A stretch of 7,660 bases of DNA, taken from IMG/VR virus record IMGVR_UViG_2579778529_000005; one strand, written 5' to 3'. The DNA is from a virus. Taxonomy: Duplodnaviria; Heunggongvirae; Uroviricota; Caudoviricetes. The notes below the pieces were generated by a model. That model saw only the letters and a list, made by a program, of their open reading frames with translations. It searched no databases and had not been told where the DNA came from. Of this stretch, positions 1,591 through 7,660 are shown piece by piece. How positions within the stretch are numbered: position 1 is the first letter of the stretch; every line of letters begins with the position of its first letter. A program made the translations under genes and the position numbers.

Positions 1591-1923
1591 ATTGATAACA
1601 GAGGGCGTTGCAGCGGGGTTGTCACTTAAGCGTATGGTCAACCTGACAACCCGGTGTCCTCAACGGGGAAGGAATAACCCCGCCATACTTACCGCCGCGC
1701 CATTTCGCGGGTTGCCACAACCGGAAGCGCACGGTCGACGAAAATTTAACGACAGGCTATCTATGAACCAGCTACCTCGCCGTGCGCTTTCGCGTTATGG
1801 TCTGACTTTTCAGGGAAATATCCTTTCAGTAAACTGTCAGTGCCGGATGTTCACCCGTGTCCGGCGCACGCACTCCACCTCACCCGTGGAGAACTCCTTA
1901 ATTACCAACCCTCAGGAGGGTGA

Positions 1924-2157
1924 ATGTTAAAATCAACTCTTATTGCTAAATGCCTTTATCAAAATCGCATGGTAAGCAGCATTTCAATAGGCGAGTCTGC
2001 AGTTAAAAGTATTTTCGAAGAGTACTTCCCCGGGCATGATTTTAATAAATGGAATACCAAATTACCGCCAGCAGTTTCAACGCGTATTCTGAAAGCAACT
2101 GAAAGAGCAAGTACAATTCGCGTTAACTATTTCATTAAAGATTTGTGGGATCTTTGA
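1924..2157 (+). CDS. Hypothetical 77-aa protein encoded opposite to the dicB operon; no recognisable domain
   Basis: ATG at 1924 preceded by a perfect AGGAGG (1914..1919) at 4-nt spacing. AT-rich coding sequence follows a GC-rich structured region. The 3' end overlaps the 3' end of the 135-aa gene by 23 bp. No homolog recognised. Confidence 0.5.
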   Translation: MLKSTLIAKCLYQNRMVSSISIGESAVKSIFEEYFPGHDFNKWNTKLPPAVSTRILKATERASTIRVNYFIKDLWDL

Positions 2158-2542
2158 TATCCACAGAGCCTAAAGTATGTGCATATGGATGTGCTATTGT
2201 GCGCCCTCGCAGATTTGCATCATTTTCTAAATTCACTGAACGAAACAGGGCATCAACAAGGCTCTGTACAATGCAAAGGCAATCGAAGACTGTCGCTGTT
2301 TCTGTTTTGATTGATGAAAGAACATGGCCATTCACGCAAACAGAAATTACCCGTTCATTAACATCGCTTTCCTGCTTTTGATTATCAGAACCATATAGCC
2401 CAGAAAAAGCATTGCGCACATTACGAACCATATTATCGATGGTTTCTTTTTTGGTGTATGCCGGGTCAATTTTCACCAGACTATCACCGAGAGTCGTTGC
2501 AGCAATTGTCTGGATTTCTTTTGGTAAATCTTTAAATTCCAT
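2135..2542 (-). CDS. Hypothetical 135-aa soluble protein, extra gene in the dicB operon between ydfC and dicF; function unknown
   Basis: ATG at 2542 with GAGG RBS, starting 22 bp downstream of the ydfC stop on the same strand. Intact 135-codon frame ending TAA at 2135..2137. I do not recognise the protein (MEFKDLPKEIQTIAATTLGDSLVKIDPAYTKKETIDNMVRNVRNAFSGLYGSDNQ...). Confidence 0.65.
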   Translation of the reverse strand: MEFKDLPKEIQTIAATTLGDSLVKIDPAYTKKETIDNMVRNVRNAFSGLYGSDNQKQESDVNERVISVCVNGHVLSSIKTETATVFDCLCIVQSLVDALFRSVNLENDANLRGRTIAHPYAHTLGSVDIKDPTNL

Positions 2543-2564
2543 TATTAGCCTCGTTGGTTAGCTA

Positions 2565-3264: not shown

Positions 3265-3672
3265 TTATCTTTTATTTGTCCGCTGACGGGCTTTTAGTAA
3301 TTCTTCAAAGAGTTTATTGAAGTTTTTTACTCGAGCTCGCATTTCGGCGAGCTGGGTATCCTGTTCTGATTCTGGCAGTGCATTAAACAGCTCAAGGAGC
3401 TCTAGTTCTTTGGGGGATAAGGCAACTGGCTTCTCAACAGGTGGTGTTGGTTGCTTGTCTTCATCGCCAAATAGAATCCATGTTGGTGAGCATTGCAATA
3501 CTTTGCTGAGGGCAAAAAGGTTCTTCCCTGTAGGTTCACTATCACCCCGTTCCCATTGTGATACAGACACATGGGAGATTTTCAGGGCTTTAGCAAGAGA
3601 CCTTTGGGTGTGTTTGAGGTTTTTCCGACGATACCTGATGCGTTCGCCGATAGTTAAATTTTTTGTTTCCAT
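3265..3672 (-). CDS. dicA: DicA, 135-aa XRE-family HTH repressor (cI/c2-like immunity repressor of the dicB operon)
   Basis: METKNLTIGERIRYRRKNLKHTQRSLAKALKISHVSVSQWERGDSEPTGKNLFALSKVLQCSPTWILFGDED... has an N-terminal HTH (QRSLAKALKISHVSVSQWERG) and matches K-12 DicA as I recall it. Divergent from dicC. Confidence 0.92.
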   Translation of the reverse strand: METKNLTIGERIRYRRKNLKHTQRSLAKALKISHVSVSQWERGDSEPTGKNLFALSKVLQCSPTWILFGDEDKQPTPPVEKPVALSPKELELLELFNALPESEQDTQLAEMRARVKNFNKLFEELLKARQRTNKR

Positions 3673-3755
3673 AGTTAGCTAATGCTAAATCGTATTGACT
3701 ATGTTTTTGTTAACATCTATCTTGTTAGTTATGACTAACAATAAAGGTGTTTTAA
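3673..3755. promoter_or_regulatory. Divergent dicA/dicC promoter-operator region: dicC promoter (-35 TTGACT 3695..3700, 17-bp spacer, -10 TATCTT 3718..3723) and operator palindrome TTGTTAGTtatgACTAACAA (3722..3741)
   Basis: Perfect 8-bp inverted arms with a 4-bp spacer overlapping the -10/+1 of the dicC promoter. Additional TTAGCTAATGCTAA motif at 3675..3688 just upstream of the dicA start. Confidence 0.6.
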
Positions 3756-3986
3756 ATGCTTAAAACTGACGCTCTTTTGTATTTCGGTTCAAAAACAAAA
3801 CTTGCACAAGCAGCAGGTATTCGTTTGGCTTCGCTTTATAGCTGGAAAGGGGATTTAGTTCCCGAAGGTCGCGCGATGCGTCTACAGGAGGCATCTGGCG
3901 GGGAGCTTCAGTATGATCCCAAAGTTTATGATGAATATCGTAAGACGAAGCGGGCGGGGCGGTTGAACAATGAAAATCACTCCTGA
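3756..3986 (+). CDS. dicC: DicC, 76-aa Cro-like regulator
   Basis: MLKTDALLYFGSKTKLAQAAGIRLASLYSWKGDLVPEGRAMRLQEASGGELQYDPKVYDEYRKTKRAGRLNNENHS matches K-12 DicC as I recall it. AAGGTG RBS. Divergent from dicA. Confidence 0.9.
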   Translation: MLKTDALLYFGSKTKLAQAAGIRLASLYSWKGDLVPEGRAMRLQEASGGELQYDPKVYDEYRKTKRAGRLNNENHS

Positions 3987-4491
3987 ACAGGCTCGTGAGG
4001 CTCTGGATGCCTGGATATGTCGACCAGGAATGACACAGGAGCAGGCGACGATATTAATCACTGAAGCATTCTGGGCTTTGAAAGAGCGCCCGAACATCGA
4101 TGTTCAGCGTGTCACATATGAAGGTGGCGCGATTGATCAGCGAGCGCTTGGCGTTAATCGAGTGAAGATATTTGAACGCTGGAAGGCTATCGACACCAGG
4201 GATAAGCGTGAAAAGTTCACGGCGCTAGTGCCTGCAATTATGGAGGCTATCCGGATTAATGATTTCAGGTTGTATCGTGAAATTACTGACGGAAAAAGCA
4301 TCACGTGCATGATCGCCGGGTTAAACAAAGAATATGGCGATGTGGTGGAGTCCGGACTGCTTTTTGCTGATCCTGCCGTAGTGGATCGTGAAACTGACGA
4401 ACTTATAGAAAAAGCAATTGCTTTCAAACTTGCGTATCGACAGCAATACCAACAAAAAGCTGGATGGAATTATGAGCCTTCTTTTTGCTGA
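3970..4491 (+). CDS. Hypothetical 173-aa phage protein at the position of a cII/YdaT-type early regulator (immediately after the cro-like gene); function not established
   Basis: ATG at 3970 overlaps the dicC 3' end by 17 nt, suggesting translational coupling. Frame is open for 173 codons. No recognisable motif; the assignment is positional only. Confidence 0.6.
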   Translation: MKITPEQAREALDAWICRPGMTQEQATILITEAFWALKERPNIDVQRVTYEGGAIDQRALGVNRVKIFERWKAIDTRDKREKFTALVPAIMEAIRINDFRLYREITDGKSITCMIAGLNKEYGDVVESGLLFADPAVVDRETDELIEKAIAFKLAYRQQYQQKAGWNYEPSFC

Positions 4492-5437
4492 ACGCCCACT
4501 GGTTATAAACACGCAGCTGGCAATGAAAATTGGCTTAAACGAAGCCATTGTTTTGCAACAACTGCACTACTGGTTGAGAGATACCAACTCCGGCATGGAA
4601 TGTGATGGTGTTCGCTGGATTTATAACACAACGGAACAATGGCTGGAACAGTTCCCATTCTGGTCAGAGTCAACGTTAAAGCGCGCGTTTGCAAGTCTGA
4701 AAACGCTGGGGCTTTTGCGTTGTGAAAAGCTCAATAAATCAAAGCGCGATATGACCAATTTCTACACGATCAACTATGGGAGCGAGCTTTTAGATGGTGG
4801 CAAATTGAGCGAATCCATCGGTTCAAAATGCGCCGCTCCATCAGGTCAAAATGACACGATGGAAGAGGTCAAAATGAAACGCTCCATTGGTTCAAAACGA
4901 CCCAATGTCATCGGGTCAAAATGGCCTGATGATCTTACAGAGAATACAACAGAGATTACTACAGAGAATAAAAACACTTTTCGTCCGGAAGCTTCGCAAC
5001 CGGACCCGCAGACGACTGAACAGGATTTTTTAACCCGGAACTCCGACGCGGTTGTGTTTAGTGCGAAAAAACGCCAGTGGGGTAGCAGGGAGGATTTGGC
5101 GTGTGCGCAGTGGATCTGGGGGCGGATCGTGGGTCTCTACGAACAGGCAGCCAGTGATGATGGCGAGATCATGCGACCAAAAGAGCCTAACTGGACTGCC
5201 TGGGCCAATGACGTGCGCACAATGCGGATGCTGGATGGCAGAAGCCACAGACAAATTTGCGAAATGTTTGGTCGGGTTCAGCGAGATCCATTCTGGGTAA
5301 AAAACATCATGAGCCCGTCAAAGCTCCGCGAAAAATGGGACGAACTGGTCATCCGCCTGGGACGTTCACCTGTACAGCGTTGTGTTAATCATATTTCTGA
5401 ACCGGATACAGAAATTCCGCCTGGTTTCAGAGGATAA
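4472..5437 (+). CDS. Phage replication initiator (lambda O-like), 321 aa from ATG 4472, with origin iterons inside the coding sequence
   Basis: N-terminal region MSLLFAERPLVINTQLAMKIGLNEAIVLQQLHYWL... looks like the DNA-binding domain of O-type initiators. Central SIGSK/GSK repeats are encoded by five 23-bp-phased iterons followed by an AT-rich tract, the classic lambdoid ori-in-O layout. The track start at 4418 is a TTG; ATG 4472 is preferred. Confidence 0.75.
   Translation: MSLLFAERPLVINTQLAMKIGLNEAIVLQQLHYWLRDTNSGMECDGVRWIYNTTEQWLEQFPFWSESTLKRAFASLKTLGLLRCEKLNKSKRDMTNFYTINYGSELLDGGKLSESIGSKCAAPSGQNDTMEEVKMKRSIGSKRPNVIGSKWPDDLTENTTEITTENKNTFRPEASQPDPQTTEQDFLTRNSDAVVFSAKKRQWGSREDLACAQWIWGRIVGLYEQAASDDGEIMRPKEPNWTAWANDVRTMRMLDGRSHRQICEMFGRVQRDPFWVKNIMSPSKLREKWDELVIRLGRSPVQRCVNHISEPDTEIPPGFRG
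4814..4976 (+). repeat. Putative replication origin: five about 17-bp iterons (consensus TCCATCGGTCAAAATG) phased every 23-24 bp (starts 4814, 4837, 4860, 4883, 4907), then an AT-rich tract with three ACAGAGA(A/T)TA repeats (4937..4970)
   Basis: Direct repeats read from the sequence. The architecture matches lambda ori (iterons plus AT-rich DNA-unwinding element within O). Confidence 0.65.
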
Positions 5438-5477: not shown

Positions 5478-5900
5478 GTGGCAAAAGTTTTTACACAAGA
5501 AGAGCGGGAAAAAATTAAATGGCAGGTGGTGGAACTCGTGCGCCAGAGCGGCCGTGAGACGTTACGGCAACTGGAAGCTAAAACAGGTGCGACTAGATAT
5601 CTGATGAGCGTTCTTGCCAGAGAGCTGGTAGCCAGTGGCGATGTATACAACTCCGGCTACGGGTTATTCCCCTCTGAACAGGCGCGTAAGGACTGGCAAA
5701 ACGCCCGCAAAAAACTCTCGAGGGCAAAGGTGAAGAAACCTGCTGTGGTTGATCCGGACCTTATCTGGTCATCACCTGACGGAGAAATACGTCGCTACGA
5801 CAGTCGCCTAAACATAATCTGTCGCGAGTGCCGGAAGAGCGAAGTTATGCAGCGCATACTGGCTTTCTATCAGGGTAATTTTCAGGACGTGGCGCAGTGA
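5478..5900 (+). CDS. Hypothetical 140-aa phage protein (GTG start), translationally coupled to the downstream methyltransferase-like ORF
   Basis: GTG at 5478 preceded by AAGGGGGA RBS at about 5-nt spacing. Basic protein with a CRECRK motif. Its stop overlaps the next start (GTGA at 5897..5900). Confidence 0.6.
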   Translation: MAKVFTQEEREKIKWQVVELVRQSGRETLRQLEAKTGATRYLMSVLARELVASGDVYNSGYGLFPSEQARKDWQNARKKLSRAKVKKPAVVDPDLIWSSPDGEIRRYDSRLNIICRECRKSEVMQRILAFYQGNFQDVAQ

Positions 5901-6253
5901 GTGCACCGGCAACCATTCTTGATATGTGCTGTGGCAGCCGCATGTTCTGGTTCGATAAGTCTGACGAACGGGCGATATTCAGCGATATCAGAAAAGAAGG
6001 ATACACATTACGCAATGGGAGACGCTTGATTATCAGCCCTGACATTATCGCAGATTTTCGTGCATTATCATTTGCAGACGCATCTTTTTCGATGGTTGTA
6101 TTAGACCCTCCGCATCTTGAGAGTGTTGGTGATAACGCCTGGATGGGAAAGAAATATGGACGGCTGAATAAAGATGCCTGGCGTGATGATTCGCGACAGA
6201 GATTTAAAGAAGCCTTTCGGGTGTTGAGGCCGCACGGCGTTCTGATTTTTTAA
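5897..6253 (+). CDS. SAM-dependent methyltransferase-like protein, 118 aa, possibly C-terminally truncated (candidate pseudogene)
   Basis: Motif I-like LDMCCGS near the N-terminus and motif IV-like VVLDPPH about 60 residues later (the D/N-PP-Y/F/H signature of amino-methyltransferases), then RVLRPHGVLIF. The frame stops at TAA 6251..6253 but stays open for about 30 more codons (WNETQIPVSQILALTDRKPVICQRTGKKR) before the next stop. IS3 is inserted about 150 bp downstream. Confidence 0.5.
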   Translation: MSAPATILDMCCGSRMFWFDKSDERAIFSDIRKEGYTLRNGRRLIISPDIIADFRALSFADASFSMVVLDPPHLESVGDNAWMGKKYGRLNKDAWRDDSRQRFKEAFRVLRPHGVLIF

Positions 6254-6402
6254 TGGAATGAAACGCAAATACCGGTAAGCCAGATTCTGGCACTGACAGA
6301 CAGAAAACCTGTTATCTGTCAACGAACAGGGAAAAAACGATAAAACCCACTGGATTATTTTTATGAAAGAGGCATCCAGTGAGTAGATTCGTAAGGCTAC
6401 AG

Positions 6403-6441
6403 TGATCCTACCCACGTAATATGGACACAGGCCTAAGCGAG
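6403..6441. repeat. IS3 terminal inverted repeat (right end, IRR)
   Basis: Imperfect inverted match to the terminal 39 bp at 7622..7660 (TGATCYTACCCA...TGGACAC...CTAAG). Confidence 0.85.
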
Positions 6442-7299
6442 GTTCTGGTTTTCAAATTGTTCCGGACTGAGGCCGCCACACCAACTGTGCCGCCGCCACC
6501 GATTGTAATCACATTCGATATAATTAAACACCGTTGCCCGCATTATTTCCCGGCTGATAAAGTGTTCTCCATGGATACATTCCACTTTCAGCGAATGAAA
6601 GAAGCTTTCCACGCAGGCATTATCGTAGCAGCAACCTTTTGCGCTCATACTTCCACGCAGATTATGCCGCTTCAGTTGCGCCTGATAATCTGCTGAACAG
6701 TACTGGCCTCCACGGTCCGTGTGAACGATAACGTTCCGGGGCCTCTTACGCCGCCACAGCGCCATCTGCAGGGCATCGCAGGCCAGTTGCGCCGTCATGC
6801 GTGGCGACATTGACCAGCCAATAACGGCACGTGACCACAGGTCAATGACCACTGCCAGATACAGCCAGCCTTCATCTGTACGTAAGTACGTGATGTCTCC
6901 TGCCCACTTCTGGTTCGGGCCACTGGCGTAAAAATCCTGCTCCAACAGATTTTCTGACACAGGCAGGCCGTGTGCGCGGTAGCTGACCGGGCTGAACTTC
7001 CGGGAGGCCTTTGCCCTCAGTCCCTGACGGCGCAGGCTTGCCGCCACGGTTTTTACGTTAAAGGGGTAACCCTGAGCACGCAGTTCATCCGTCAGGCGTG
7101 GGGCACCGTAACGCTGTTTTGACCGGGTAAAAGCCGCGAGGACAACGCTGTCGCAGTGTTGGCGGAACTGCTGACGCGTGCTTATCCTTGTCCGCCGCTG
7201 ACACCACGTATACCAGCCGCTGCGGGCCACCCGGAGCACGCGGCACATTGCTTTGATGCTGAACTCAGCCTGATGTTTTTCAATAAAGACATACTTCAT
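6433..7299 (-). CDS. insF: IS3 transposase OrfB (InsF), DDE integrase-type catalytic domain, 288 aa
   Basis: [36 protein letters not shown]... matches IS3 InsF as I recall it. Normally expressed as an OrfAB fusion by -1 frameshifting. Confidence 0.95.
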
Positions 7300-7595
7300 T
7301 TCAGGCGCTTCGCGAAGTATGTCGCGGCCTTTTGGAGGATAGCCAGCTCTTCATCCCGTTCTGCCAGCTGGCGTTTGAGACGTGCAATCTCGGTAGACAT
7401 CTCCAGTTCACGTTCAGAAGACGTCTGCTGATTTTGCTGTTTACTGCGCCAGTTGTAGAGCTGTGATTCATACAGGCTGAGTTCACGGGCTGCGGCAGTA
7501 ACACCGATGCGTTCAGCAAGCTTCAGGGCTTCACTGCGAAATTCAGGCGAATGCTGTTTACGGGGTTTTTTACTGGTTGATACTGTTTTTGTCAT
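7296..7595 (-). CDS. insE: IS3 transposase OrfA (InsE), HTH DNA-binding protein, 99 aa
   Basis: [54 protein letters not shown]... The track ORF carries a 3-codon N-terminal extension (MTHMTKTV); the 99-aa form is the known product. Confidence 0.9.
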
Positions 7596-7621
7596 GTGAG
7601 TCACCTCTGACTGAGAGTTTA

Positions 7622-7660
7622 CTCACTTAGCCGCGTGTCCACTATTGCTGGGTAAGATCA
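7622..7660. repeat. IS3 terminal inverted repeat (left end, IRL)
   Basis: Reverse complement reads TGATCTTACCCAGCAATAGTGGACACGCGGCTAAGTGAG. Flanking target duplication cannot be assessed because the window ends here. Confidence 0.85.

Follow-up and report, generated by a model that had tools for sequence, protein, structure and literature searches.

Where does a Qin-like lambdoid prophage of E. coli begin its vegetative replication, and what is the role of the ordered repeats that lie inside its initiator gene? These questions are raised by a 7,660-nucleotide stretch of DNA (IMG/VR virus record IMGVR_UViG_2579778529_000005; the whole stretch is referred to here as the window), which is part of such a prophage. 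The repeats lie within an O-like replication initiator gene of 321 codons (4472..5437, + strand), whose product gives a full-length match to PHROG 391, 'replication initiation O-like' (E 1.1e-91), residues 17-321 aligning with positions 11-298 of the 298-position profile. Judged by sequence comparison, the region 4794-5005 is very probably the vegetative origin of the prophage, situated inside the gene for its own initiator and within the stretch encoding the linker of that protein. A preliminary description had proposed a replication origin embedded in this O-like gene; comparison supports the proposal, the layout resembling that of the lambda origin (ori) and of RepA_N plasmids.

The array itself is plain from direct reading. 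Five units begin at 4814, 4837, 4860, 4883 and 4907 (TCCATCGGTTCAAAATGCGCCGC, TCCATCAGGTCAAAATGACACGA, TGGAAGAGGTCAAAATGAAACGC, TCCATTGGTTCAAAACGACCCAA and GTCATCGGGTCAAAATGGCCTGA), as the preliminary description had it; Tandem Repeats Finder (TRF) reports a period of 23 over 4814-4887, and a separate repeat search finds five copies spaced by 23/23/23/24 bp. The core TCAAAAYG, at 4823, 4846, 4869, 4892 and 4916, has five matches on both strands of the window, all of them on the + strand and within the array, with a chance expectation of about 1.2 anywhere in the window. The repeats are far beyond chance. A degenerate sixth unit, with core CAAATTG at 4801, lies 23 bp upstream of unit 1; the version of this position in relatives is a better match (gaggtCAAAGTGacc), and with this unit 0 included the six units are spaced by 23/23/23/23/24 bp. 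The earlier description of this spacing as helical-phase-like is partly right: the spacing is regular, but 23 bp corresponds to about 2.2 helical turns, so that the units are not strictly helically phased.

A consensus built from 48 units of eight relatives, aligned without gaps, is a 21-bp imperfect palindrome, ATC.GGTCA-AAA-TGACC.GAT, whose arms converge on an A-tract. This palindrome describes the functional unit better than a 16-mer does. Expressed in these terms, the + strand units of the window are unit 0 (4794..4814, degenerate, ATGGTGGCAAATTGAGCGAAT), unit 1 (4817..4837, ATCGGTTCAAAATGCGCCGCT), unit 2 (4840..4860, ATCAGGTCAAAATGACACGAT), unit 3 (4863..4883, AAGAGGTCAAAATGAAACGCT), unit 4 (4886..4906, ATTGGTTCAAAACGACCCAAT) and unit 5 (4910..4930, ATCGGGTCAAAATGGCCTGAT). 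Inverted repeats are found in units 2, 4 and 5, of which units 2 and 5 are near-palindromes, and the centre of unit 4, TCAAAACGA, equals that of lambda iteron 1.

The array is followed by an AT-rich, purine-skewed tract (4932-4976; 71% A+T, 67% purine). Within it lie three 12-mers of the form ACAGAGAWTAnn (4937..4972, + strand); the motif ACAGAGAWTA has three occurrences (4937, 4949 and 4961) where chance predicts 0.03, confirming an earlier report of three ACAGAGA(A/T)TA repeats after the iterons. By nearest-neighbour energy no 40-mer in the gene is less stable than the 12-mer tract, which ranks in the top 0.7% of the window and is presumed to be the DNA-unwinding element. Beyond the AT-rich tract lies a 23-bp palindrome absent from the preliminary description, GTCCGG-N11-CCGGAC (4983..5005, + strand, GTCCGGAAGCTTCGCAACCGGAC), which has the same offset in enterobacterial relatives and in Morganella carries a paired change of TTGC/GCAA to TTCC/GGAA.

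Loci sharing the N-terminal domain (N-domain) of the initiator were gathered from a phage collection and from one genome per species; 26 were examined, one of them (Pseudomonas phage AF) for the 12-mers only. A phased array directly follows the N-domain in most of the 26 loci, and a core-motif scan finds no array in five of them. The origin reading thus survives a check for homologous initiators lacking iterons at this position. Arrays occur in Escherichia, Klebsiella phage ST147-VIM1phi7.2, Citrobacter, Enterobacter, Izhakiella, Trabulsiella, Morganella, Hafnia phage yong2, Erwinia phage PEp14, a Bacillus prophage, Staphylococcus phage 96, Lactobacillus phage mv4 and Vibrio phage SSP002, as well as in Moraxella (seven units) and in metagenome-assembled genomes (MAGs) of Deferribacterales (nine units). 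N-domain relatives are also present in phages of Staphylococcus, Bacillus, Listeria and Lactobacillus. In relatives the units are 21-24 bp apart, except in SSP002, where the intervals are larger and uneven. The CA-AAA-TG centre persists for the most part, with alterations for example in phage mv4 and in locus L032, and the half-site triplet differs by lineage (GGT/ACC, GGA/TCC, GGG/CCC, GTG/CAC or TGTT/AACA), the half-site being GGTCA in the window, GGACA in Hafnia phage yong2 and GGGCA in Erwinia phage PEp14. The alignment shows no simple code connecting recognition-helix residues with half-site changes, though no dedicated attempt to link the two was made.

In Shigella phage SfIV and Klebsiella phage 1 LV-2017 (locus L007), similarity is confined to the C-terminal half of the gene; the N-domain is another one, and so is the repeat, which encodes SDxSK. 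As these phages share only the C-terminal domain (C-domain) and carry other repeats, the array travels with the N-domain and not with the C-domain. Without function, this distribution across phyla would be difficult to account for. In the Trabulsiella locus one unit (L019 828-852, GGTCATTTTGACC) is inverted, a T-tract replacing the A-tract, which is consistent with the palindromic reading of the units. In three loci from Deferribacterales and Proteobacteria MAGs (L030-L032), a tandem duplicate of the N-domain opens a protein of about 785 residues, and an array of 7-9 units with 21-22 bp spacing follows the second copy.

The 12-mers are shared more widely still. CAGAGAnTA occurs 49 times in the 8.7 kb of linker zone from the 26 loci, always on the coding strand, compared with two occurrences on both strands of the remaining 241 kb, an enrichment of about 680-fold. 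The 11-12-mer CAGAGAyTAC is kept from E. coli to Pseudomonas phage AF, Bacillus, phage mv4 and Deferribacterales; loci carrying it beyond the window include L022, L026, L030, L036 and L037. Copy number changes by whole units, as in L009, where four copies are found in a gene for a 325-residue protein. On this comparison the 12-mers are conserved far beyond any need for A+T-richness, and since they are kept in sequence across hosts as unlike as E. coli and Lactobacillus, the initiator probably recognizes them itself. The palindrome is also found in SfIV-type initiators, with their different N-domain, and in Lactobacillus phage mv4 (L037, about 2015-2033). Iterons, 11-12-mers and, in part of the family, the GTCCGG...CCGGAC palindrome would make up a three-part DNA signature of the origin.

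Within the initiator, the AlphaFold 2 (AF2) model has two folded parts, an N-domain (residues 10-105) and a C-domain (residues 183-295). The array (4794-4930) and the 12-mers (4937-4972) occupy codons 108-167 of 321, between these domains. The N-domain, encoded by 4472..4795 (+ strand), is a predicted winged helix presumed to bind the iterons. Pfam and NCBIfam scans of the initiator give no family match, and only PHROGs names the protein. Sub-threshold matches of the N-domain are to the winged-helix families Cdc6_C, PadR, MarR and DnaD_N, and sequence searches of the PDB with the protein and with an N-domain profile return only marginal winged-helix/PadR matches. Comparison of the modeled fold assigns the N-domain to a RepA_N/DnaD-like winged helix, closest to the initiators of RepA_N plasmids. 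A simply divergent lambda O was considered as an identity for the protein and dropped, a profile-profile comparison of the N-domain with that of lambda O showing no relationship.

The C-domain (5018..5356, + strand), helical in the AF2 model, aligns by BLASTP with lambda O at 34% identity over 148 residues (E 1e-26; query 147-294, lambda O 135-270), an alignment that marks the C-domains of the two proteins as true homologs. The initiator is a chimera, combining an N-domain that is RepA_N-like in fold with a lambda O C-domain. The mosaic modules join where the origin ends, around position 497-535 of the gene query, and the module boundary of the chimera coincides with the origin itself. At its extreme C-terminus the protein carries a DnaT-like tail (5372..5434, + strand, VQRCVNHISEPDTEIPPGFRG), for which a phmmer search of the PDB finds the C-terminus of DnaT (2ru8, 6aep and 9zbt_D; E about 0.01) and which matches the DnaT family NF002770 at positions 160-179. 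Its last 17 residues (VNHISEPDTEIPPGFRG) almost reproduce the C-terminal end of E. coli DnaT (VNTVSEPDSQIPPGFRG). Related tails that finish in GFR(G/S/T/N) are present in most, not all, relatives, several of which have different C-domains. By mimicking DnaT, the tail may recruit host proteins of replication restart or helicase loading; the searched literature did not yield a binding partner for the extreme C-terminus of DnaT.

Because the repeats lie within a coding sequence, they could in principle be a matter of protein: a linker (SIGSK, TENT/TEIT) arisen by slippage and kept for the protein, with the DNA repeat as a by-product. We find this scarcely credible. The preliminary description stated that the iterons encode a repeated SIGSK/IGSK linker, and S/VIGSK is indeed the peptide of units 1, 4 and 5; in units 2 and 3, however, the same DNA is translated in the two remaining frames. 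The unit peptides are, in order, SIGSKC, PSGQND, EEVKM, SIGSKR and VIGSKW, the units falling in all three reading frames because 23 bp is not divisible by three. Codon positions were compared in a gap-free alignment of eight enterobacterial relatives. In the N-domain, 68/95, 79/95 and 12/95 columns are invariant at codon positions 1, 2 and 3 (13% for the third), the usual signature of protein-level selection. The corresponding values are 29/48, 31/47 and 25/47 in the array (53% for the third) and 13/13, 8/14 and 12/14 in the 12-mer tract (86% for the third); by Fisher test the third positions differ from those of the N-domain both in the array (p=5e-7) and in the tract (p=6e-8). As conservation of the array is blind to codon position and its units fall in three frames, the constraint is on DNA and not on protein.

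The 12-mers have a period divisible by three and encode the peptides TENT, TEIT and TEN, as a protein-level linker might. Their second codon positions are nevertheless the least conserved of the three, and in Moraxella, the Bacillus locus and phage mv4 repeat spacings of 11 and 12 bp shift the frame. Codon choice in the tract is fixed, with 44 GAG against 6 GAA codons for Glu and 89 of 94 Thr codons being ACA or ACT; in the N-domains these two make up 38 of the 120 Thr codons of the same genes. The peptide encoded by array, 12-mers and palindrome (residues 109-177) is predicted to be disordered, with a predicted local distance difference test (pLDDT) score below 30 in AlphaFold, between the two folded domains; the equivalent linker of the pSK41 Rep is dispensable (PMC5703833). 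The protein-level account of the repeats was rejected on the evidence of frame and codon position.

A role in DNA does not of itself make the array an origin. The units could be real protein sites serving mainly in regulation or exclusion, by titrating the initiator of superinfecting relatives, by autoregulation or by incompatibility, which we consider improbable. Such a role would suit a Qin-type prophage that had become largely defective and lost the ability to replicate on its own. Qin is cryptic in K-12, and an IS3 element lies about 1 kb downstream of the initiator gene. The gene is also widespread, being found full length (coverage of at least 80%) in 1849 of 5426 complete E. coli genomes, about a third. 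According to PMC3349717 and PMC4488673, the cloned replication region of lambda inhibits homologous phages (the Inhibition Phenotype, against rep-lambda phages), and cloned ori-lambda itself has also been reported to be inhibitory. Against a purely regulatory role stand phages PhiR42_1, HannyBb and mEp460_ev081, which carry the gene (100%, 98.2% and 96.7% identical, respectively) and the array as their only replication module. The initiator open reading frame (ORF) is intact, moreover, and exclusion would add to an origin function and not replace it. The replication module had been called intact in the preliminary description. This applies to the gene and origin, which are full length, the gene being identical to that of PhiR42_1. 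It is not extended to the whole prophage: an IS3 element follows 1 kb further on, a gene for a helicase loader is missing, prophages of the Qin type are frequently defective, and the window holds no sign that this one as a whole is inducible.

It is also very improbable that the units are bound chiefly by some other factor, whether host DnaA or IHF or the neighboring YdaT/cII-like or DUF977 protein. Host factors are used by lambdoid origins (PMC7466680). A scan nevertheless finds no DnaA box (up to one mismatch) within 2 kb of the origin, and the iteron units, judged by eye, do not fit the IHF consensus. The array follows the N-domain across phyla among wholly different neighbors and hosts, its half-sites vary with N-domain lineage, and where the N-domain is replaced, as in SfIV, the repeats are replaced as well.

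Several points weigh against the origin reading. The 26 loci share ancestry, and their number overstates the count of independent events. In the window, units 0, 1 and 3 are weak palindromes. The N-domain, taken as a 21-sequence profile, is aligned to that of lambda O (Pfam Phage_rep_O) with an hhalign probability of 0.3%; RepA_N (PF06970) does not match the window protein at E<=1 and is not among the 25 families listed of the 31 that match any of 21 N-domains. The AF2 model is of medium confidence (mean pLDDT 58) and derives from a shallow alignment of 14 sequences; as the N-domain has no kin in sequence, its DNA-binding role rests on this model. No gene for a helicase loader or helicase (P, DnaC or DnaB) is present near the initiator, and the step after melting is conjecture. 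In the searched literature no experiments on this origin or its initiator family came to light, whether on binding, footprinting, origin mapping or plasmid replication, nor any on the Gram-positive phage relatives of the N-domain.

From the features described above we infer binding, melting, helicase recruitment and activity in this prophage along the following lines. Initiator dimers would use their winged-helix N-domain to bind the six 21-bp semi-palindromic units, bending the A-tract centers and forming a wrapped nucleoprotein similar to the O-some. Torsional stress in supercoiled DNA would then melt the adjacent tract, 4932-4976, in which the 12-mers are probably recognized by the initiator, possibly as single strands; lambda O has been reported to recognize A/T-rich single strands (PMC7466680). 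Recruitment of the host helicase machinery, needed because the phage is without a P, DnaC or DnaB gene of its own, would fall to the lambda-O-type C-domain together with the DnaT-like tail.

A wider proposal is offered tentatively, and we regard it as possible more than probable. It holds that A-tract iterons and three or four CAGAGAyTAC 11-12-mers are inherited together with the RepA_N-like N-domain in lineages ranging from Enterobacteriaceae to Bacillus, Lactobacillus and Deferribacterales; that the unwinding repeats are recognized by the initiator through their sequence, and not through A+T richness alone, in the manner of the DnaA-trio or of plasmid Rep proteins at their DNA-unwinding elements; and that the P-less enterobacterial versions reach host DnaB-DnaC by mimicking the DnaT tail. 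Hosts and C-domains vary, and the N-domain is the sole constant partner of the repeats, which suggests such sequence-specific reading.

In its architecture the proposed origin is close to lambda ori, which lies in gene O, and to its six-iteron Shiga toxin (Stx) phage variants. In each the origin is placed between the parts of the gene that code for the N- and C-domains, with four to six direct repeats at a spacing of 20-24 bp and an internal dyad around an A-tract. The lambda control has four annotated iterons, ATCCCTCAAAACGAGGGA and close variants, spaced by 20/24/23 bp. Unit 4 of the window, TTGGTTCAAAACGACCCAA, shares its nine central bases with lambda iteron 1, whereas the outer arms differ. 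In lambda and the window alike, the iterons lead, on the same side, into an AT-rich, purine-skewed tract and then a palindrome (also PMC7466680), and the C-domains are homologous. In contrast to lambda, the window has an N-domain unrelated in sequence, half-sites of GGT/ACC and not CCC/GGG, an AT-rich tract built of sequence-conserved 12-mers, a DnaT-like tail that lambda O lacks, and DUF977 in place of an adjoining P gene.

The RepA_N replicons of Firmicutes (pSK41 and pTZ2162) and the RepA of Vibrio PLE resemble the window in having a three-part initiator of about 320 residues. RepA_N initiators comprise an ori-binding winged-helix N-terminal domain, an ori-encoded central linker and an exchangeable, host-specific C-terminal domain, the Rep boxes of pSK41 lying centrally in the rep gene (PMC5703833); their iterons are semi-palindromes converging on a poly-A tract (PMC7145576). 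The window follows the same pattern, with semi-palindromic poly-A iterons that are central in the gene and encode the linker, but membership of the Pfam RepA_N family is not apparent in sequence. The C-terminal domains also differ, being of lambda-O type in the window and DnaG-binding in pSK41, and the element of the window is a lambdoid phage of Enterobacteriaceae, in contrast to the Gram-positive plasmids of the RepA_N group. Further parallels are provided by SPP1 gene 38/oriL, TP901-1 ORF13 and Tuc2009 rep2009, where initiator-binding repeats and then an AT-rich stretch lie in a replication gene; the initiators of these phages belong to families other than that of the window.

Iterons and an unwinding tract within a gene are a textbook design, known from lambda and RepA_N plasmids, and the view of phage replication is therefore unchanged. 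Relative to the searched literature, the origin of this family, the chimeric make-up of its initiator, the conserved 11-12-mers and palindrome, and the loader-less DnaT-like tail are new. A function and an exact origin are offered for a gene mostly labeled 'hypothetical protein' in RefSeq, and the 11-12-mers, together with a DnaT-like tail in the absence of a loader gene, provide a lead to how loader-less initiators open DNA and recruit the helicase. Labels differ between identical copies: the gene is 'DNA replication protein O' in the deposited phage PhiR42_1 and 'hypothetical protein' in the Qin prophage of E. coli ATCC 8739, both being 100% identical to the gene in the window.

The surroundings of the gene are those of a Qin-type early region. 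On the left arm, a full-length match to the DicF antisense small RNA (1538-1589, - strand; Rfam RF00039, 76.7 bits) confirms a Qin-type dicBF region. The genes dicA (3265-3672, - strand; DicA) and dicC (3756-3986, + strand; DicC) flank, on the left and right, a candidate pR-like early rightward promoter in the gap between them (3695..3723, + strand), detected in a consensus scan as TTGACT-17-TATCTT; we infer its promoter function, and transcription from it would cross the origin. A YdaT/cII-like gene (3970-4491) lies just ahead of the initiator gene. Directly after the initiator comes the DUF977 gene (5478-5900), named 'LygF' or 'Ren-like exclusion protein', which occupies the place where lambda has P and then ren. 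It is followed by an S-adenosylmethionine (SAM)-methyltransferase ORF of 118 residues (5897-6253), which covers positions 52-165 of the 229 in phrog_954 and looks truncated. The order initiator, DUF977, methyltransferase is also found in phages PhiR42_1 and HannyBb.

The IS3-family element extends from about 6403 to 7660, its orfB (6433-7299) and orfA (7296-7604) being encoded on the - strand. Similarity to PhiR42_1 stops at window position 6402; identity to this phage is otherwise 99.4-99.7%. A 634-bp segment of the window (1911-2544) is missing from PhiR42_1; it contains a 135-residue ORF on the - strand (2135-2542) without an assigned function.

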